Virus record (IMG/VR): IMGVR_UViG_3300019374_000122
Coordinates: 1 to 7,114 of that record
DNA from: a virus
Lineage: Duplodnaviria; Heunggongvirae; Uroviricota; Caudoviricetes
Length of the DNA stretch: 7,114 nucleotides
Reading direction: 5' to 3' (one strand)
The notes under the pieces were generated by a model. The model saw only the letters and a program-made list of their open reading frames with translations. It was not told the DNA's origin and searched no databases. This document shows, one piece after another, positions 1-7,114 of the stretch. Both the position numbers and the translations under genes were made by a program. The stretch's first letter is position 1, and each line of letters starts with the position of its first letter.

Positions 1-140
1 CCCCACCCCACCACCAATGGCAACAGAAAGCGATTTAGGCCATCCGACATACTCAAGCGCGGATGCAAAGGGCAAAGTCAGAGCGCCACATAGCAAAATC
101 TCGAGCGTTTTTTGCTTCCACCCCCCACCACCGACAATAA
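1..140. repeat. Direct repeat copy 1 (about 96% identical to 322..461, offset 321 bp); holin 3'-region sequence
   Basis: Base-by-base alignment of 1-130 with 322-451 shows 5 mismatches; identity decays over 131-140. The 321-bp offset is a multiple of 3. Confidence 0.9.
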
Positions 141-243
141 CATCATAACCGTGGTTACGTGTCGGTTGTCGCCCGTTATCCGTTCCTTCTGACCATGCAA
201 CCATATCCAGGAAAGCTTTACGCTGGGAATTTAGTACCTGCAT
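1..243 (-). CDS. Endolysin (lambda R-type lytic transglycosylase) 5' portion, fused in-frame after codon ~39 to a diverged copy of the holin 3' region; ORF runs off the window at position 1
   Basis: ATG at 243..241, with AAGGAG at 250-255 six nt upstream and directly after the holin stop. Translation MQVLNSQRKAFLDMVAWSEGTDNGRQPTRNHGYDVIVGG closely matches the N-terminus of phage lambda R as I recall it (MVEINNQRKAFLDMLAWSEGTDNGRQKTRNHGYDVIVGG...). It then continues GGWKQKTLEILLCGALTLPFASALEYVGWPKSLSVAIGGGVG, which is holin sequence. No stop codon before the window edge. Confidence 0.6.
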   Translation of the reverse strand, partial: MQVLNSQRKAFLDMVAWSEGTDNGRQPTRNHGYDVIVGGGGWKQKTLEILLCGALTLPFASALEYVGWPKSLSVAIGGGVG

Positions 244-246
244 AAA

Positions 247-582
247 TTACTCCTTCGAGCTACCAAACTTGTTACCGATTACTCTCATTGCAGCCCCACG
301 AATAGCATCGACACCGATCAGCCCCACCCCACCACCAATGGCAACAGAAAGCGATTTAGGCCATCCGACATACTCAAGCGCGGATGCAAAGGTCAACGTC
401 AGAGCGCCACATAGCAAAATCTCGAGCGTTTTTCGCTTCCAGCCACCACCACCGCCAAAATAGGCGATGCGCAAACCAGCCATAACAATCGACATAATCA
501 CTGCGCCCAGCGGCGTATCTCCACGCCACCAGCTCTGAAACAACTCCAGCCAGTCCGGCCAAGTATTTGGGTTATGAGGCAT
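247..582 (-). CDS. Holin, phage lambda S family (class I, three predicted TM segments)
   Basis: Translation from ATG 582..580 (MPHNPNTWPDWLELFQSWWRGDTPLGAVIMSIVMAGLRIAYFGGGGGWKRK...GVDAIRGAAMRVIGNKFGSSKE) aligns in pattern with lambda S (…AMAYLRGRYNGGAFTKTV…IGTDSIGSLIKRFAAKKAG). It sits immediately upstream of, and is translationally linked to, the endolysin start. The track's longer ORF begins at an in-frame GTG at 678, inside the methyltransferase C-terminus, which I consider unlikely as the start. Confidence 0.8.
   Translation of the reverse strand: MPHNPNTWPDWLELFQSWWRGDTPLGAVIMSIVMAGLRIAYFGGGGGWKRKTLEILLCGALTLTFASALEYVGWPKSLSVAIGGGVGLIGVDAIRGAAMRVIGNKFGSSKE
322..461. repeat. Direct repeat copy 2, lying inside the intact holin gene
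   Basis: Same alignment as copy 1; this copy is embedded in the complete holin ORF. Confidence 0.9.
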
Positions 583-658
583 TTCGTCATCTCTCACCTC
601 GCGATATTTGCGGGTGCTGTGTTGGAAATAAAAAGGCCACGCAACGTGGCCACCAGAA

Positions 659-1710
659 TTATTTCCCCACCAGTTCACTTACCTCTTTCACCGTCTGATT
701 AAATCGCTCTGACTCAAGTTCAACACCTAACGCCCGACGCCCCAGCGCCATTGCCGCTTTTATTGTGGAACCGGATCCCATAAGAAATCAGCAACCAGAT
801 CGCCTTGTCGACTACTGGCACTGATTATTTGCCGGAGCATATCCGCAGGCTTCTCACACGGATGTTTACCCGGGTAGAACTGAACGGGTTTATGCGTCCA
901 GACGTCGGTATAAGGCACGGAAACTGATACGGAGAAATAGCGCCGGAGAGTTTTAAACTCATCCAGCAATTCAGAATATTTGCGATTCAGTGAATCATAA
1001 GATGCCACCAGCTGGTGGTGTGGTTGTTCCAGTTGTTGTTCCTGAAATTTCTCTGCCGCTATACGGGAAAACAGTGCCTGCAACTTCCGGTAGTCAGCCT
1101 CATTCGGCAACTGCCACTGACTGGCACCAAACCAGTGGGAAACCATATTTTTCTTACCTGTGGCTTCGGCAATTTGTTTTGCCGTTATACCCAGTTCGGC
1201 ACGAGCATCCCTGAAATACGATATCAGCGGTGCCATTATGTGCTGTTTGAGTTCCCTTTCTTTTGCCGCATAGCCGTCACTTTTGCCGCGATATGGCCCC
1301 TGGTAATGTTCAGCAAACAGAACGCGCTCTGTGGCAGGAAAATATGCGCGCAGACTTTCTTTATTACACCCATTCCAACGTCCGGACGGCTTCGCCCAGA
1401 TGATATGGTTAAGCACGTTGAAACGTTCACGCATCATGATCTCAATATCAGATGCCAGGCGATGCCCACAGAACAGGTAAAGGCTTCCGGCAGGTTTCAA
1501 CACCCGCCAGAACTGGGCCAGACAGTGGTCCAGCCACTTAAGGTAATCTTCGTCCCCTTTCCACTGATTGTCCCAGCCGTTGGGTTTCACCTTGAAGTAC
1601 GGCGGATCGGTAACAATCAGGTCAATGGAATCATCAGGCAGGGACTGAATAAAATGCAGGCAATCAGCGTTGATTAAATCAACACTGTTTATTTTTACAG
1701 TATTTTTCAT
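659..1710 (-). pseudogene. Beta-class DNA methyltransferase (N6-adenine/N4-cytosine, DPPY motif), disrupted by a 1-nt frameshift just before the C-terminal FxGxG AdoMet-binding motif
   Basis: The ORF 760..1710 carries IVTDPPYF near the N-terminus and ends ...DLVADFLWDPVPQ*. A different frame from ATG 781..779 reads MGSGSTIKAAMALGRRALGVELESERFNQTVKEVSELVGK*, with stop at 661..659, which is the canonical motif I and C-terminus. A single missing base around 782-790 would restore one continuous ORF. Confidence 0.75.
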
Positions 1711-1860
1711 GGATCAGTAAGCGTAACTCTGGTAGGCTCACTCTGCTTTTGCGCTAAAGCAGTGGGCCGTGGTTCGCTTGTGACCAGTAGGCATGAGCGA
1801 ATGGCTGGCAGGTGCTACCAACACCCACCAGCCGCCCATTTTCACAGCAGGAAACCGCCA

Positions 1861-2064
1861 TTACTGGCAGCGTCTGAATTTATTCCCGTACCCGCCGTTA
1901 TCCTTCGCCAGACCCGCCAGAACTAACTGAGTCAGTATTAACTGGCACCGGGCTTCGCTTACTCCGGTAGTTCTCGTCATCATGCGTGGCGTTACCCACT
2001 TGTCAGCAGGTAAGAAATGAAGGACTGCGGCGGCGGTTTCTGTCATATCTTGCTGTTTTAGCAT
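1861..2064 (-). CDS. Small hypothetical protein (67 aa), possibly DNA-binding; function unknown
   Basis: ATG at 2064..2062 is preceded by AAGGGA about 7 nt upstream on the minus strand. Translation: MLKQQDMTETAAAVLHFLPADKWVTPRMMTRTTGVSEARCQLILTQLVLAGLAKDNGGYGNKFRRCQ. The track ORF extends to a GTG at 2148 with no RBS. Confidence 0.4.
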   Translation of the reverse strand: MLKQQDMTETAAAVLHFLPADKWVTPRMMTRTTGVSEARCQLILTQLVLAGLAKDNGGYGNKFRRCQ

Positions 2065-2185
2065 GTTTTTTCCCTTCTGGTTAACATGACATACCAATAA
2101 CTCTTGTCTAAAAAGCCAGCAAGATAAAAAGCCAGTATTCACGACCACCAGCGTGTTTACTGTACTGCACCAGGTTTACAGGTAC

Positions 2186-2207
2186 AAAAAAACCGCTCAG
2201 CGGCGGG
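2186..2207 (-). terminator. Candidate intrinsic terminator for minus-strand transcription (short GC hairpin followed by U7)
   Basis: Minus-strand RNA reads cccgccgcugagcgg followed by uuuuuuu (plus-strand A7 at 2186-2192). The stem is only 4-5 bp, so this is weak. Confidence 0.3.
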
Positions 2208-2287
2208 TTTAAGTTGTGTGGCGAAGTAACCACTCTTAACAGATTACAATGTTTTTTGCGGACCGCGCTAATGATTTCCTCTTTTTT

Positions 2288-2317
2288 TTGTTGTATTTTT
2301 CACACGGTTGCTAAAAT
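2288..2317 (+). promoter_or_regulatory. Candidate sigma70 promoter for the plus-strand island (-35 TTGTTG, 18-nt spacer, -10 TAAAAT), preceded by a T-rich tract
   Basis: TTGTTG at 2288-2293 and TAAAAT at 2312-2317, with a T-rich UP-like tract at 2281-2300. The implied leader before ATG 2333 is very short, so the exact start site is uncertain. Confidence 0.35.
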
Positions 2318-2332
2318 TATTTCGGATCGATA

Positions 2333-3274
2333 ATGAGTACAGAAAATAAGAATAAAACTAGGCGAGTGAGAGTTGGTTTTTTCACTGGTAATGGAAGCAA
2401 AAAAGATGGCACATCTGCTGCAAAACTAGCCTTTGAGCAAATGACCACAGCAGATACTGTAACTTTTCCAATAACTTACACAACAGACACCCCAAATCGA
2501 GGGTTAAAGTTAGTTATTCTTCAAAAAGATACCACACTGCAATGTTACTTTGGTTACGTATCGTGGAGAAGGGAATGCCTACTACCGTTCATCGAGGATG
2601 CTACAGGTAGTGAGAGAACAATTCCTTTAAATGATAAAGATTCTGTAGTTGAAAGAACATATTTTATCTATTACTACGAAACGGATTTATTAGCTATGAC
2701 CCTCAACCATATAGGGCCCAAAGTAAATGATCTGGCATTCATTTTGTATAACAAAACTGATTTAAAAAGCGTCACTTTTGAAGCCATTTGGAAACAAGAG
2801 AGCATGAAGGAACTGCTTGAGGACGGAAATATCCTACGTAGTTTCGATCTTATAGTTGCTGCTCCAAGAAACTTTAACAAAGCTAATTATAAGATTAAAA
2901 ACCCTTTAGCTAATGAAATTATTGACATGGTTGTTGGTATGGGCGGGTCGCATCTAAGATTAAATATGCGAGGTCGGATTCGCCCGAAAAAACAAGGTTT
3001 TAACTATCTAAAAACTTCTGTCACCGATGCTATTAAGGAACTACTTGAACTTTTTCCAAAAGGTTCTGGAGGTCTAAAAATTAAAAAAATTGATGTAACA
3101 GAGCCATCCAATAGAACGCCCAAAAGTCTACTTGACCAAGTATTGGTCAGTACAAAGACAATCATTGTCAAAAGCGGTTATCCATCCGATTCTGATATCA
3201 GAACGGCGATGATATCTGCTAAAATTGATAACGCGAACTATCTTGCACAGTATGAGCTCGCTAGCAGAGACTAA
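2333..3274 (+). CDS. Hypothetical soluble protein (313 aa), first gene of the AT-rich island; candidate sensor component of a phage-exclusion/abortive-infection module
   Basis: Long uninterrupted ORF in an AT-rich segment (about 38% GC in a 100-nt hand count at 2333-2432, against about 48% at 4201-4300 in the flank). No Walker A, DPPY, HNH or other motif that I recognise. Its stop is 22 nt from the RBS-led start of the membrane-protein gene. Confidence 0.8.
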   Translation: MSTENKNKTRRVRVGFFTGNGSKKDGTSAAKLAFEQMTTADTVTFPITYTTDTPNRGLKLVILQKDTTLQCYFGYVSWRRECLLPFIEDATGSERTIPLNDKDSVVERTYFIYYYETDLLAMTLNHIGPKVNDLAFILYNKTDLKSVTFEAIWKQESMKELLEDGNILRSFDLIVAAPRNFNKANYKIKNPLANEIIDMVVGMGGSHLRLNMRGRIRPKKQGFNYLKTSVTDAIKELLELFPKGSGGLKIKKIDVTEPSNRTPKSLLDQVLVSTKTIIVKSGYPSDSDIRTAMISAKIDNANYLAQYELASRD

Positions 3275-3295
3275 TAACCAAGCATGGAGGACACA

Positions 3296-3745
3296 ATGAG
3301 AGAATTAGCCACTTTTCTCTGGAAATGCGTCCTCTGGATTCTGTTGACCTATGCAGCGACAAAACTGTTTAAACCGATGAAGCATGCTGACGTACTCACA
3401 ACAGCGGGGGTGCTCTCGACTATATCAGGCATCCTGTTTGGTTTTGTTCTGGCTGCAATATCTATATTTAGTAGTGCAAACAGCGATAAGGAAGGAGCAA
3501 TTAATGCCCTTAAGCAAAACAACGTGTTACCAACTCTGGTAAATCGATTACTTTCAACAGGGTTAACTCTCATCGTCGCATGTATATTTCCATTGATAGC
3601 GATGTTTCTACCAGATGATGTTATTGTTGCGGGCAAACCTATTGATTTCCTATTCATACTGTTAGGCTTATCCTCCCTTATAATTTCGCTATATACCTTC
3701 GGAAGGTGTTGGTTAGTGTTACGAAAAATCTTCCCCCACTTGTGA
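3296..3745 (+). CDS. Small integral membrane protein (~149 aa, four predicted TM helices); candidate effector of the island
   Basis: GGAGG at 3286-3290 lies 5 nt upstream of ATG 3296; an alternative ATG at 3284 has no RBS. Four hydrophobic stretches: LATFLWKCVLWILLTYAATKLF, VLTTAGVLSTISGILFGFVLAAISIF, LPTLVNRLLSTGLTLIVACIFPLIAMFL, PIDFLFILLGLSSLIISLYTFGRCWLVL. Confidence 0.8.
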   Translation: MRELATFLWKCVLWILLTYAATKLFKPMKHADVLTTAGVLSTISGILFGFVLAAISIFSSANSDKEGAINALKQNNVLPTLVNRLLSTGLTLIVACIFPLIAMFLPDDVIVAGKPIDFLFILLGLSSLIISLYTFGRCWLVLRKIFPHL

Positions 3746-3774
3746 CAGGTTGGCCTCATATGGGGCCAACCTGT
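3745..3774. terminator. Perfect 11-bp inverted repeat (acaggttggcc / ggccaacctgt) with 8-nt loop, between the convergent island and Q; likely bidirectional stem-loop terminator or insulator
   Basis: Left arm 3745-3755, right arm 3764-3774, loop tcatatgg. It overlaps the stop codon of the membrane-protein gene and lies 7 bp from the Q stop. There is no adjacent U-run on either strand. Confidence 0.5.
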
Positions 3775-3780
3775 GCAACC

Positions 3781-4149
3781 CTAAGCGTCCATTTCAAGGT
3801 TAACATCCAACATTGAAAGGCAACCATCAATAAATCCTTCGGCTAGTTGTATTTCTATGCGTACCAATTTTTCATCCTTTCCACGCACCTTTGCAATCTT
3901 ACGCTTGGATATTCTGTATAAATAATGTGCCACAAGCAGCGAGTGCTCATCTGGCTTTTTTTGCTTTAGACGAGCAAGACAACCTTCAATAATTAATGCA
4001 TCACTATCTGAACAAGCCTGACGTGTTTTGCTTGTGTAGGGAAGAAGCCCCTTAAACCCAGCAGCTATAGGCGAATAGTCTACTCCAGAACTATCACTCG
4101 CCGCCCATGCTCCCCAACGCTCCAGAACCATCTGAATATCACGCATCAA
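3781..4149 (-). CDS. Late-gene antitermination protein Q (phage 82/21 QuuD-like family)
   Basis: Translation MMRDIQMVLERWGAWAA... matches the N-terminal signature of QuuD-type Q proteins as I recall it (MRDIQMVLERWGAWAA...). GGAG lies 7 nt upstream of ATG 4149. Position upstream of the lysis genes fits. Confidence 0.85.
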   Translation of the reverse strand: MMRDIQMVLERWGAWAASDSSGVDYSPIAAGFKGLLPYTSKTRQACSDSDALIIEGCLARLKQKKPDEHSLLVAHYLYRISKRKIAKVRGKDEKLVRIEIQLAEGFIDGCLSMLDVNLEMDA

Positions 4150-4163
4150 CTTTCTCCACCAAA

Positions 4164-5159
4164 TCAGGCCAACACACCAATCGCCAGCGCGCGATCGATA
4201 AAACGAAATATCAGCTCCAGTTGGGAGCCATACTTCTCTTCAAATGCCACGGTATCCGCATGCAGCTCGTCGTGATGCTTTCTGCACAAAGGCAACACAA
4301 AGAGGTCATGCGCTTTTGTACCCATTCCACCCTGACCGTGACCTATCAGGTGGTGGGGATCATCAGCAGGCTTTCCACAACATGCACACGGCTGTGTCTT
4401 AACCCAGCGCGTGTACTTTTCATTAACCCAGCGGCGGCGTTTTGGGCGTAACATAAAAGACTCCGGCGACTCCGGATCCACTTTCAGCGCCAGCACCTTT
4501 TTCGCCTTATCCTGGATGATGCTGGTGGCAGGAACCGAAGGCACAAGGTCACTTTCCCGGGTGACAGACGGCACAACAGGCTTCGGTAATCTCAGTGCCT
4601 TACGGGCTGCACTTTCCGGTAAGGCATCTGCCAGATCATTACGAATCAGCCACCAGCACAGTTCCGGCATTGTCACAACGTGACTATCATCAAAACCGAG
4701 ATCCCGACGCACAACAGACAACACCCAGCGGGCACAGTTATCCGTTGCCATTGATTCCAGCCGTTCCGTGAACTGATCGCGAAGCTGGTTATCGCAGTGC
4801 CAGCACAGACGGATTGCGCCCGGCGCGTGTCGCATTGTGGTCATGTTCTCGCTGTGCCAGTCGGAATGAGGCCACTGGCAGCCTTTTTCACGAAGTAACC
4901 AGCTTTCAAGACATTCCACCCCACCAGCACGACGAATCACTGCCTCATTACGGAACACGGCCAGAACGGCAGGATCATCCGCCAGCGGTTGTGATGCCGC
5001 AGGAACGGCACCACTGGCGAAAGATGAATAACGCTCCGGCTCAGGCTCCAGCAGAACACGGCCCTGCATAAACAGGGGCATCAGCTCTGAACCTGGCCTG
5101 AACAATACGATCCCCATACGCGGGGCAATTTCAGGGGTCAGTAGTGCTCTCACGGTCAC
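4164..5159 (-). CDS. DUF968-like prophage protein with C-terminal Cys/His-rich (HNH-like) motif; start codon uncertain
   Basis: 331-aa ORF; C-terminus PCACCGKPADDPHHLIGHGQGGMGTKAHDLFVLPLCRKHHDELH. The track start is a GTG at 5159, one nt after the KilA-N stop, with no clear RBS; internal ATGs are alternative starts. Confidence 0.65.
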   Translation of the reverse strand: MTVRALLTPEIAPRMGIVLFRPGSELMPLFMQGRVLLEPEPERYSSFASGAVPAASQPLADDPAVLAVFRNEAVIRRAGGVECLESWLLREKGCQWPHSDWHSENMTTMRHAPGAIRLCWHCDNQLRDQFTERLESMATDNCARWVLSVVRRDLGFDDSHVVTMPELCWWLIRNDLADALPESAARKALRLPKPVVPSVTRESDLVPSVPATSIIQDKAKKVLALKVDPESPESFMLRPKRRRWVNEKYTRWVKTQPCACCGKPADDPHHLIGHGQGGMGTKAHDLFVLPLCRKHHDELHADTVAFEEKYGSQLELIFRFIDRALAIGVLA

Positions 5160-5160
5160 C

Positions 5161-5970
5161 TCAATGAACGGTATCGAGCAGCTTTAACAGCTCAGTGAAT
5201 CGGGATTCGAAGAAATGCGGCTGCGTCTCGCGCGGATTTGCAGGACTGGTGATGTTCTTGCCGAACATGCAGCCTTTCGCCGTCAGCGACCAGAATTTTT
5301 TGATGTTGTTAATCGCTGTACGGCTGTATCGTTCGCGCTGTTCGACGATCCCCAGCTTCGCCATCTGGTGATATGCCTGATTAGCCGTCAGGCGGATACC
5401 ATACTGCTTCAGCAGTGCACTCAGTGACAGCGTGGGGCGGCTTGAGCCATCAGGCGCGTCAGCAGGAACATCAATGGCATAACGCGGTGCCAGATTCGGT
5501 AAGCCAACAGCCTCCTGGAGTTTCTGACAGGCCCCAAGCACAGATGAGTTAGACAGATTTAACTCCCGGCGCATAAAGTCCAGCAGAATCACGCCAGCCT
5601 GCATCTTGTCAGCAGCCTGTCCGGATAACTTTTCCGGCGCGCTGGTTACCATATCGAAAGTACGGATCACCTTCAGATGGAATGACGGGCTGATCCACAT
5701 TGCATAGGCATACACCAGTTCCTTACAGACATACGTTCCCCGTTCATTTCCCCCATGAATCACACTAACTGGGTCAACACCCAAATTCTGGGTGTTGATT
5801 AATTCATGAACAAGATCAACAGTTTGTTGGCTGGAAAGAAACTTTCCTGGCTCCTTGGTTCTGGCATTTGCACCAGATGCTACTGCTGCGCGATGCAGAT
5901 CGTTCAGGCTGTAACGCTCATAAGCATCACGACGAACTTCAATACCATCAATGACCATCAGATTATTCAT
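5161..5970 (-). CDS. KilA-N domain protein (Roi/antirepressor-like DNA-binding protein)
   Basis: N-terminus MNNLMVIDGIEVRRDAYERYSLNDLHRAAVASG... fits the KilA-N pattern. ATG 5970 is preceded by GAGGGG about 8 nt upstream. Confidence 0.7.
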   Translation of the reverse strand: MNNLMVIDGIEVRRDAYERYSLNDLHRAAVASGANARTKEPGKFLSSQQTVDLVHELINTQNLGVDPVSVIHGGNERGTYVCKELVYAYAMWISPSFHLKVIRTFDMVTSAPEKLSGQAADKMQAGVILLDFMRRELNLSNSSVLGACQKLQEAVGLPNLAPRYAIDVPADAPDGSSRPTLSLSALLKQYGIRLTANQAYHQMAKLGIVEQRERYSRTAINNIKKFWSLTAKGCMFGKNITSPANPRETQPHFFESRFTELLKLLDTVH

Positions 5971-5989
5971 ACTTCGTTTCCCCTCTTAA

Positions 5990-6379
5990 TCAGGCAGCTG
6001 CACCCGCCGTTTTCTCGTACTTACTGATAGTGATCTCGACCTTCCCTTCCGGGATAACCGGTCCCCACTCCACCAGCATTCTTTTCACCTGACTGTCGTC
6101 TTCCCACACCCCCGCGTGGGTCAGGGCGTCAAACAGCGCCTTGTTATAGTTGTCCAGATCGCGGATCCTGTTATCCGGAGGAAACAACACGATCTCCACT
6201 GAAGCAGGTGCCGACGTTGGTTTCGGCAGACGACGTAACTGCTCAACTATTGCTGCGCACGCCGCGCTCTGGAATTTTCGCCCCGCCGCGCTTATCAGGC
6301 TCTTACCAGCAAACGCCCCTTTGTTGGGGTGTCGCCAGTACGTGTTCACGCTGGGCGGAAAAGGCAGGATCAGCTTCAT
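5990..6379 (-). CDS. rusA: Holliday junction resolvase RusA
   Basis: MKLILPFPPSVNTYWRH...RIRDLDNYNKALFDALTHAGVWEDDSQV matches the E. coli RusA pattern (PWPPSxNxYYRH...[28 protein letters not shown]), including the catalytic Asp cluster. Its start overlaps the upstream stop as ATGA. Confidence 0.9.
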   Translation of the reverse strand: MKLILPFPPSVNTYWRHPNKGAFAGKSLISAAGRKFQSAACAAIVEQLRRLPKPTSAPASVEIVLFPPDNRIRDLDNYNKALFDALTHAGVWEDDSQVKRMLVEWGPVIPEGKVEITISKYEKTAGAAA

Positions 6380-6702
6380 ACTTTCAGGCCCCTCTCATGT
6401 AACCAGTGGGTTGCACGCAGCCTTGCGTTTTCCTCACCGGCAAGCAGTGAGCGGATAATCCCGACCGCCTCGCTGTCGTCGTCCTTCACCGCGGTATGAA
6501 GCGTGATGCCCCGGGCCACGCCACGCTTTATCGTGATGACGCCTTTTTTCTCCAGTGCGCGAAGATGCTCCACCGCTGCATTCACTGAACGGTATCCCAG
6601 CATGGTTGCCACCTCCTGATTGGTTGGCGGGAAGCCACGTTCTTTCTGATAAGAAATCAGCATATCCAGCACCTGCTGCTGGCATTGAGTTAACGTCGTC
6701 AT
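6376..6702 (-). CDS. LexA N-terminal DNA-binding-domain homolog lacking the S24 peptidase domain (108 aa)
   Basis: From ATG 6702..6700: MTTLTQCQQQVLDMLISYQKERGFPPTNQEVATMLGYRSVNAAVEHLRALEKKGVITIKRGVARGITL aligns with E. coli LexA residues ~4-68 ([65 protein letters not shown]). No Ser/Lys protease domain follows. The start overlaps the upstream stop as TAATG. Confidence 0.8.
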   Translation of the reverse strand: MTTLTQCQQQVLDMLISYQKERGFPPTNQEVATMLGYRSVNAAVEHLRALEKKGVITIKRGVARGITLHTAVKDDDSEAVGIIRSLLAGEENARLRATHWLHERGLKV

Positions 6703-7052
6703 TAAGCCCCCACGTAATTCCCTGACAGATACCACTCATCACCCGATGCAGCGCGCTTGCTGCTTTTCCGTAAGCACCGCTCACGACGCGCAAGAAAATT
6801 GTTTCGCTCTTGCTGGGAGTGGCTTTCACGGAATGCCGCCATCCACACCGTTGCAGCACGACGGTATAAGCCCCTGGACTCCAGTTCTTCCGCCTGGCGG
6901 GTCAGGCACAAAATCTCCCGCGGGTCGTTAGTGCCGACATAGAAATTGCGCACAGGTCTGGTTTCACGAACTGGTTGCGGTTCCGCCTCCTGCGCTCTCT
7001 CAGTCAGGCGCGGGAAATGTCTGCGTGTATCCCCTTCACAACGGTGAGCCAC
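6702..7052 (-). CDS. PerC-family-like regulator domain; true start uncertain because the frame stays open to the window edge
   Basis: AEELESRGLYRRAATVWMAAF...ERNNFLARRERCL resembles the PerC/Pch pattern (AExLExxGxWRRAAxxW...RRxxCL). The track start is a GTG at 7052, and the same frame has no stop between 7053 and 7114. Confidence 0.55.
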   Translation of the reverse strand: MAHRCEGDTRRHFPRLTERAQEAEPQPVRETRPVRNFYVGTNDPREILCLTRQAEELESRGLYRRAATVWMAAFRESHSQQERNNFLARRERCLRKSSKRAASGDEWYLSGNYVGA

Positions 7053-7114
7053 ACGACCACTCTGACGTAACTTGCTTGCTGACTGCAGAACGCGCTGCCG
7101 TGAGTAACCTGCAA

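Follow-up and report, generated by a model that had tools for sequence, protein, structure and literature searches.

A four-transmembrane protein and its soluble partner in a lambdoid Escherichia coli prophage: a probable RexAB-type exclusion cassette

Positions 1 to 7,114 of IMG/VR virus record IMGVR_UViG_3300019374_000122 (Caudoviricetes; hereafter the window, 7.1 kb) represent the late-regulatory region of a lambdoid Escherichia coli prophage whose genes lie on the minus strand, and they raise the question of what is encoded by two genes, here called gene A and gene B, that run in the opposite direction in their midst. An initial annotation, made from the sequence alone, took the product of gene B to be RexB-like on the grounds of its size and topology, and suggested that it is an ion channel or a membrane-disrupting effector of abortive infection. 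Our analysis indicates that gene B is probably the membrane component of a two-gene, prophage-borne exclusion (abortive-infection) cassette of the RexAB type. Gene A and gene B very likely form a homologous pair of this type; gene B is likely to be a distant homologue or analogue of RexB; and a role as the membrane-damaging effector of an abortive-infection system is somewhat favoured. The structural and evolutionary points are demonstrated: gene B is a real, selected gene with a four-transmembrane (four-TM) topology and a profile match to RexB, the model of its partner has a RexA fold, the two genes are strictly paired, and the cassette is mobile. The elements concerned are as follows (aa, amino acids; nt, nucleotides).

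2333-3274, plus strand: gene A, 313 aa, soluble protein with a modelled RexA fold (DUF6731 / phrog_7651 family), presumed sensor and DNA-binding partner
3286-3290, plus strand: GGAGG, Shine-Dalgarno sequence for gene B, separated from the ATG by 5 nt; read from the sequence
3296-3745, plus strand: gene B, 149 aa, four-TM inner-membrane protein (phrog_8552), RexB-like

Gene B is a genuine gene under purifying selection. Its open reading frame (ORF) extends from an ATG at 3296 to the end of the stop codon at 3745, and a RefSeq coding sequence with exactly these bounds exists (WP_001208502.1, 'hypothetical protein'). The TAA of gene A ends at 3274, leaving a 21-nt spacer, so that gene B begins at the 22nd base after the stop and behind a ribosome-binding site, just as the initial annotation had it; an alternative ATG at 3284 has no ribosome-binding site, and homologues align from the start at 3296. 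These homologues form 84 clusters (clustering at 90% identity) that are 29-99% identical to gene B and are spread across Enterobacterales; among 1.84 billion proteins, 109 clusters at 50% identity were found, all of about 135-165 aa. Near-identical copies of the gene differ at synonymous sites only, and the ratio of nonsynonymous to synonymous substitution rates (dN/dS) is 0.11 at 84% nucleotide identity. The antisense ORF of 136 aa at 3349-3759 was rejected as a shadow ORF.

The predicted protein has four hydrophobic segments by Kyte-Doolittle hydropathy, and its AlphaFold2 model (predicted local distance difference test, pLDDT, 78; predicted template-modelling score, pTM, 0.70) consists of four long helices (residues 2-24, 30-60, 77-104 and 116-145) with a short helix (67-74) in the central loop. 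A small four-TM membrane protein of about 149 aa at 3296-3745, as first described, is thus recovered in coordinates, length, hydropathy and model. The loops between its helices are charged, as had been said, but they are not uniformly short, the central one having about 24 residues. The segments, from hydropathy, model and alignment, are these.

3305-3361, plus strand: TM1, aa 4-22, lowest of the four helices in both hydrophobicity and conservation
3395-3475, plus strand: TM2, aa 34-60, the most conserved part, with invariant T42, G45-I-L-F-G-F-V51 and A53; core of the RexB match
3476-3547, plus strand: central cytoplasmic loop, aa 61-84, basic, with near-invariant G67 and A71-L72-K73; aligns with the RexB loop
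3548-3610, plus strand: TM3, aa 85-105, with invariant L85, T88, L92, C96 and F104
3647-3715, plus strand: TM4, aa 118-140 (invariant G124 and W139); the basic C-terminal tail behind it closes with the conserved (I/L)xPH(L/M/I)

Within the 131-sequence gene B family, G49 of TM2 is conserved in 100% and F50 in 95% of members. The central loop of these 131 proteins carries a mean of 3.97 lysines and arginines and a net charge of +2.26; the C-terminus is positive as well, and loops 1 and 3 have a net negative charge. This family-wide distribution of charge implies that both termini are cytoplasmic (N-in/C-in) and that the basic central loop faces the cytoplasm. The same topology with a cytoplasmic loop has been published for RexB and for gp31 of phage Sbash, an experimentally validated RexB-like effector in which the central cytoplasmic loop is essential and the substitutions R70A and D73A abolish defence (PMC6426596). 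By analogy, the central loop of gene B (aa 61-84) is a candidate docking site for gene A.

Comparison of sequence profiles with hhalign suggests a link between gene B and RexB. The 131-sequence gene B profile matched a 22-sequence RexB family profile, every member of which contains PF15968, with a probability of 78% (P-value 1.8e-5, score 34.3), and residues 16-82 of gene B paired collinearly with residues 20-85 of RexB, a stretch that begins at the end of TM1 and takes in the whole of TM2 and the central loop. Reversed profiles scored 12.9 and 14.4, 60 local column shuffles scored 12.9 on average (standard deviation 2.8, maximum 22.4), and global shuffles reached at most 16.7. The hydropathy profiles of gene B and RexB correlate (r 0.76) at an offset similar to that of the profile alignment. 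A structural comparison with the BFVD library of viral protein models gave as the second-best match of the gene B model a 165-aa protein of Sbash (expectation value, E, 0.027; template-modelling score about 0.5). Its length equals that of Sbash gene 31 (Sbash genome KP027201; PMC4939774), and it is very probably gp31. Searches of the gene A and gene B profiles against Sbash gp30 and gp31 found no similarity, but lambda RexA and RexB also fail against these proteins, and the test is therefore without discriminating power; since lambda Rex and Sbash do not match each other, accepted Rex-like systems lie beyond mutual sequence detection by that test.

In the database that gave the 84 clusters of gene B, the RexB homologues form 23 clusters, all with PF15968. 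Several of them (P0240, P0245, P0247 and P0258) are named 'biopolymer transporter ExbB' by NCBI, which looks like annotation transfer without a test behind it. In Sodalis sp. TME1 (locus L116, 1753-3001), a RexB homologue 46% identical to lambda RexB is preceded by 1.2 kb without a called gene, and no RexA is called; this locus may represent a decayed rexA or an orphan RexB.

Lambda RexA is a dimeric, non-specific DNA-binding protein of known structure (PDB 8TWQ). The model of gene A (pLDDT 73.5, built from 35 sequences) begins with a seven-strand block flanked by helices, continues with a strand-and-helix domain and closes with C-terminal helices, an order that mirrors the published layout of RexA, namely a globular domain split between residues 1-139 and 248-279 and a dimerisation domain at 143-234. 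By this model, gene A is a distant structural homologue of lambda RexA. The next matches of the model were CHL4 (7.0), RdgC (6.7), IML3 (6.6) and CENP-N (6.6), of which RdgC, IML3 and CHL4 are listed as relatives of RexA in the report of the RexA structure (PMC11077077). A fold of RexA type, with a split globular domain, a dimerisation domain and likeness to RdgC, is what is expected of the soluble partner in a Rex-like system, and the modelled gene A protein has it.

The corresponding profile alignment, of 75 gene A sequences with five RexA sequences, is weak but collinear (hhalign score 26.9, probability 5.6%): residues 99-162 of gene A align with residues 82-147 of RexA around a common GP(K/T)xxDL motif, against local column shuffles with a mean score of 15.6, a standard deviation of 2.6 and a maximum of 23.1. 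The RexA profile contains just five sequences because a scan of viral contigs for RexA gave near-identical copies only. The RexA and RexB signals appeared only with broad profiles on both sides; alignments of gene B against the single lambda RexB sequence (probability 0.1%) and of gene A against the single lambda RexA sequence (0.5%) yielded nothing, and neither did a PDB sequence search with gene A. At the level of sequence, the collinear alignments of gene B with RexB and of gene A with RexA suggest that each pair belongs to one superfamily, not to the Pfam families themselves.

The initial annotation had called the gene upstream of gene B an orphan; this does not hold, for gene A belongs to phrog_7651 and can be assigned to DUF6731 through its relatives. 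Gene A of the window has no match to PF20505 (DUF6731) at E <= 1, and 20 of its 35 aligned relatives (43-62% identity) do match; because the relatives match while the window copy does not, membership is assigned by transitive homology. NCBI names relatives of gene A 'DUF6731 family protein'. In Escherichia phage vB_EcoS-733R5 (ON470608.1; locus L011, 3977-4918) a gene A homologue followed by a four-TM partner is labelled 'portal (connector) protein', almost certainly a misannotation of a DUF6731/RexA-fold protein.

The two genes are almost never found apart. A gene A homologue was present at 91 loci, and at 90 of these a gene B homologue follows directly on the same strand, downstream of it, mostly after a gap of 2-28 nt, and the lone unpaired locus has a truncated gene A; conversely, all five distant gene B relatives that were sampled (profile E 1e-22 to 8e-4) have a phrog_7651/DUF6731 ORF directly upstream. 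Apart from the window, the pair occurs in phages cdtI and vB_EcoS-733R5, in 80 viral contigs of IMG/VR, within the tail module of Proteus prophages and next to RusA or integrase genes; a scan of genome contigs came to 3 loci only. Wherever the context of gene B could be read, it was that of a prophage or mobile element. A Vibrio PM2-like element of the Vinavirales (PQ189356.1; locus L009, 1389-2896), which is non-tailed and integrated, carries a pair of 351 and 150 aa beside its integrase, with a gene B homologue recognised by hhalign at 99.5% probability; the module therefore crosses viral realms. Among 5426 complete E. coli genomes, 72 carry the allele of the window, 25 that of cdtI and 99 the rexAB genes of lambda. 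The RexB-type guess, first made on size and topology, is thus strengthened by a profile match that is in register and above shuffles, by an N-in/C-in topology with a basic central loop and by near-constant pairing of the genes. In a variant locus adjoining a GH108 endolysin (L127, 84-1259; also L128), the gene A homologue is reduced to a C-terminal ORF of 124 aa, overlapped at its front by an ORF for a 156-aa zinc-ribbon protein; this may reflect a frameshift, a split gene or a swap of the N-terminal domain.

In the window, gene A and gene B are the core of a unit with sharp edges.

About 2273-3787: low-GC cassette, replaceable, made up of promoter region, genes A and B and hairpin; flanked by the late-gene leader and the end of the Q gene
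2309-2317, plus strand: possible extended -10 element TGcTAAAAT, read by eye, tentative
3745-3774, between the convergent gene B and Q: near-perfect inverted repeat (hairpin) without a U-tract, arms 3745-3759 and 3760-3774, 93% complementary

The guanine-plus-cytosine (GC) content of the cassette is 37-42%, compared with 50-57% in its flanks, and its genes lie on the plus strand, opposite to the late/lysis operon. On both sides (595-2272 and 3788-6702) the window is 95-97% identical to phage cdtI, and the boundaries of the cassette are sharp; at the same site cdtI has an allele of the gene A/B pair that is 45% identical (gp54/gp53). PhiR40_1 shares 595-2242 and 4100-5658 of the window and has at this site an unrelated lipoprotein-like gene of 148 aa (MNKMTVLLLSATIISGC...) together with a different Q allele. 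In phages that are otherwise 95-97% identical, the Q/late-gene junction is a hotspot for cargo (window 2243-4099; L121 2635-3081; L010 3580-4968). The cassette behaves as a self-contained accessory module, either a moron or a defence module. A consensus promoter scan reported no promoter at 2309-2317. As RNA, the hairpin at 3745-3774 has a folding energy of -27.3 kcal/mol (z -4.5), a stability that none of 200 shuffled sequences reached; it is probably a bidirectional transcript end or an insulator. The 40-nt direct repeat D1, with one copy across the left boundary of the cassette (2253-2292) and the other in the 3' part of gene B (3624-3663), was set aside as probably due to chance (70% identity). 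The cassette was also found at 99.6% identity on a 100.8-kb non-mobilizable E. coli plasmid (NZ_CP104632.1, 78651-80063), possibly a phage-plasmid or else part of a prophage that was misassigned.

The remaining genes of the window are those of the prophage itself.

247-678, minus strand: lambda-family holin (PF05106, E 6e-27)
760-1710, minus strand: N6/N4 DNA methyltransferase
1861-2148, minus strand: phrog_331 ORF, 95 aa
3781-4149, minus strand: Q antiterminator
4164-5159, minus strand: DUF968/HNH protein
5161-5970, minus strand: KilA-N protein
5990-6379, minus strand: RusA
6376-6735, minus strand: LexA DNA-binding-domain protein, 119 aa

E. coli strain 1283 contains a copy identical to 2200-3800 of the window inside a complete-looking and intact-looking lambdoid prophage, the integrase of which lies beside a tRNA-Thr gene, next to proA. 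Read along the late-gene strand, the cassette is closely followed by a hairpin that carries a T-run and looks like a terminator of the tR' type (2192-2204, minus strand); after it comes the phrog_331 ORF, which has a very weak match to a Ren-like exclusion protein (E 0.067). The protein encoded at 6376-6735 consists of the LexA DNA-binding domain alone, without the S24 peptidase domain, and adjoins RusA in the prophage early region. A scan of the window with Rfam detected no RNA family.

How does this cassette compare with systems already described? Rex-like systems are carried by temperate phages or prophages and consist of adjacent, co-oriented genes, one for a soluble protein (about 280-370 aa) and one for a membrane protein (about 140-165 aa) with four TM segments, cytoplasmic termini and a cytoplasmic loop between TM2 and TM3. 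The pair of 313 and 149 aa agrees with this description in size, arrangement and carriage, as does the membrane partner by hydropathy, AlphaFold2 model and positive-inside count. The likeness to lambda RexA/RexB (PF15969/PF15968; 279 and 144 aa) includes the order of the genes, soluble then four-TM, on one strand with a short spacer; the profile match in register over TM2 and the central loop; agreement in topology and hydropathy; carriage by temperate lambdoid phages of enterobacteria; and a similar prevalence in complete E. coli genomes. The differences are a sequence identity of only about 13-14%, the greater length of gene A (by about 35 residues) and the transcriptional context: the cassette is not co-transcribed with cI and lies on the opposite strand at the Q/late junction, or at other prophage sites in relatives.

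Sbash gp30/gp31, CarolAnn gp44/gp43 and Butters gp30/gp31 share the architecture, including a four-TM membrane partner with an essential central cytoplasmic loop, and the actinophage Rex-like systems resemble the cassette in being lysogenically placed accessory modules outside the core functions; their A proteins are longer (337-372 aa), with a reported DUF4747 motif rather than DUF6731, and Butters has a reversed effector logic. RexABpp of Pseudomonas putida prophage P1 (PP_5643/PP_5644; PMC12894663), compared by its description, differs in host clade and in lying near a CI-like repressor. Kiwa, a two-gene defence system with a four-TM protein (KwaA) and a soluble protein of about 310 aa (KwaB, DUF4868), was considered and rejected: PADLOC-DB v2.0.0, which contains models for Rex and Kiwa, matched neither protein at E <= 1. 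Both proteins fall in PHROG families of unknown function, gene B in phrog_8552 and gene A in phrog_7651. Literature searches on DUF6731 and on the RefSeq accessions of both proteins returned no mention of them, and a search of the RexAB literature from 2023 onwards gave no description of the gene A/B family. Because the structural and architectural features of Rex are present and the Rex models of Pfam and PADLOC fail, the pair is best regarded as a new Rex-like family that stands outside Pfam RexA/RexB.

The mode of action that would follow from membership, from expression in the lysogen through sensing, interaction of the two proteins and channel or pore activity to defence, is modelled on lambda RexAB, Sbash gp30/31, CarolAnn gp44/43 and P. 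putida RexABpp. The cassette would be transcribed in the lysogen from its own promoter, against the direction of the phage late genes; this orientation and the tentative promoter are consistent with such expression. Gene A and gene B would be made together, given the 21-nt spacer and the strong Shine-Dalgarno sequence. Upon infection by another phage, the RexA-like gene A protein, probably a DNA-binding dimer, would sense a phage product or an intermediate of replication or recombination, and would engage the cytoplasmic face of gene B, most likely at the basic central loop. Gene B would then oligomerise or open, with the invariant TM2 (GILFGFV) at its core; dissipation of the membrane potential or permeabilisation of the inner membrane, lowering of ATP and arrest of growth would abort the infection. 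A comparable mechanism has been put forward or demonstrated for lambda, Sbash, CarolAnn and P. putida RexABpp (PMC6426596, PMC12894663).

Several points weigh against assignment of the cassette to the RexAB type. The case for the family is one of sequence, model and context. Neither protein matches Pfam RexA (PF15969) or RexB (PF15968) at E <= 0.1, the PADLOC search cited above was negative, and NCBIfam gave nothing relevant for either. The match of gene B to RexB reaches a probability of no more than 78% and extends over about 45% of the protein; the match of gene A to RexA (5.6%) is not significant alone; and the model of gene A, with a pLDDT of 73.5 from only 35 sequences, is of moderate confidence. 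The cassette is not adjacent to the immunity repressor, unlike the systems of lambda, P. putida and several actinophages. The channel activity of lambda RexB is itself a long-standing model and not a demonstrated structure. Finally, the roles of the two proteins are reversed in phage Butters (PMC12894663).

That last case supplies the alternative that survives best, although we consider it unlikely here: gene A would be the toxic or antiviral effector, and gene B an anchor that sequesters it at the membrane until infection. Such an arrangement is documented for mycobacteriophage Butters gp30/gp31, an accepted Rex-like system (PMC12894663), and strict pairing together with a conserved cytoplasmic loop would suit a binding partner as well as a gated channel. 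In four of the five described Rex-like systems, however, the effector is the membrane protein (PMC12894663), and the strongest conservation of gene B is intramembrane (T42, G45-V51 and A53 of TM2), which fits a passive anchor less well than it does a channel or an oligomerisation core.

It is also rather improbable that the pair mainly serves the prophage life cycle, with gene A binding DNA and biasing the choice between lysogeny and lysis, or late transcription, and gene B modulating gene A or host proteolysis. The cassette does lie exactly at the Q/late-promoter junction in the window, and lambda RexA acts without RexB to stabilise the lytic configuration; RexB inhibits proteolysis by ClpXP and ClpAP (PMC11077077). 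Against this, the pair occupies unrelated positions elsewhere (a tail module, a site next to an integrase, a non-tailed PM2-like element), and closely related phages carry other cargo at the same site, which speaks for an accessory module that is independent of its context and against a core regulator. A role in the life cycle and one in defence are not mutually exclusive.

We regard as very unlikely a third alternative, that gene B is a lysis protein akin to a holin or antiholin, or a superinfection exclusion protein that blocks DNA entry, and is linked to gene A incidentally. The protein is small and polytopic, its gene lies about 2.6 kb from the holin-endolysin cassette, and one distant relative is found directly upstream of a GH108 endolysin. 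Gene B, however, does not share the strand of the late/lysis operon and has no holin match in Pfam or PHROG, whereas the true holin at 247-678 has a clear one; and given the pairing at 90 of 91 loci, it is the gene A-family ORF directly upstream even in the endolysin-adjacent relative that leads us to reject a holin. The last reading, in which gene B arose by chance or else encodes part of a housekeeping transporter, is effectively refuted by its many clusters of homologues, by purifying selection, by its prophage and mobile-element contexts and by its pairing with gene A, the weak matches to DUF4064 (E 0.002), MusI (E 0.0096) and a PgpB segment in PDB (E 0.005, its only match in the PDB sequence search, and spurious) being far below curated cut-offs; neither an absence of TM helices nor homology to a housekeeping transporter, the two outcomes that the initial annotation had named as contrary to its proposal, was found.

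A RexAB-type exclusion cassette at this locus would be of some consequence for the study of prophage defence. RexAB is, to our knowledge, the oldest known abortive-infection system. The cassette would add a sixth, well-populated family to the five Rex-like systems described as of a January 2026 paper (PMC12894663), with 84 clusters of gene B at 90% identity compared with 23 of canonical RexB in the same database. Its members are invisible to PADLOC, to the Rex models of Pfam and to NCBIfam, and are annotated as 'hypothetical', 'DUF6731' or 'portal protein', so that their recognition would improve the annotation of defence genes in enterobacterial prophages. The cassette would also provide a Rex-like pair that is native to E. 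coli and genetically tractable, and the pattern of conservation points to candidate channel-gating residues, namely G49 and F50 of TM2 and G67 and K73 of the central loop.

More tentatively, and with slightly less than even confidence, we suggest that DUF6731 and phrog_8552 belong to an ancient RexAB superfamily as a large branch that has gone unrecognised, with members in tailed lambdoid prophages as well as in non-tailed PM2-like (Vinavirales) elements, and that the TM2 motif T-x2-G-I-L-F-G-F-V and the basic central loop, which are in register with lambda RexB, form the conserved gating core of RexB-type effectors. If this is true, the branch would offer the first comparative handle on the 70-year-old Rex mechanism, and abortive infection of the Rex type would be several-fold commoner in Enterobacterales than defence-finders report.

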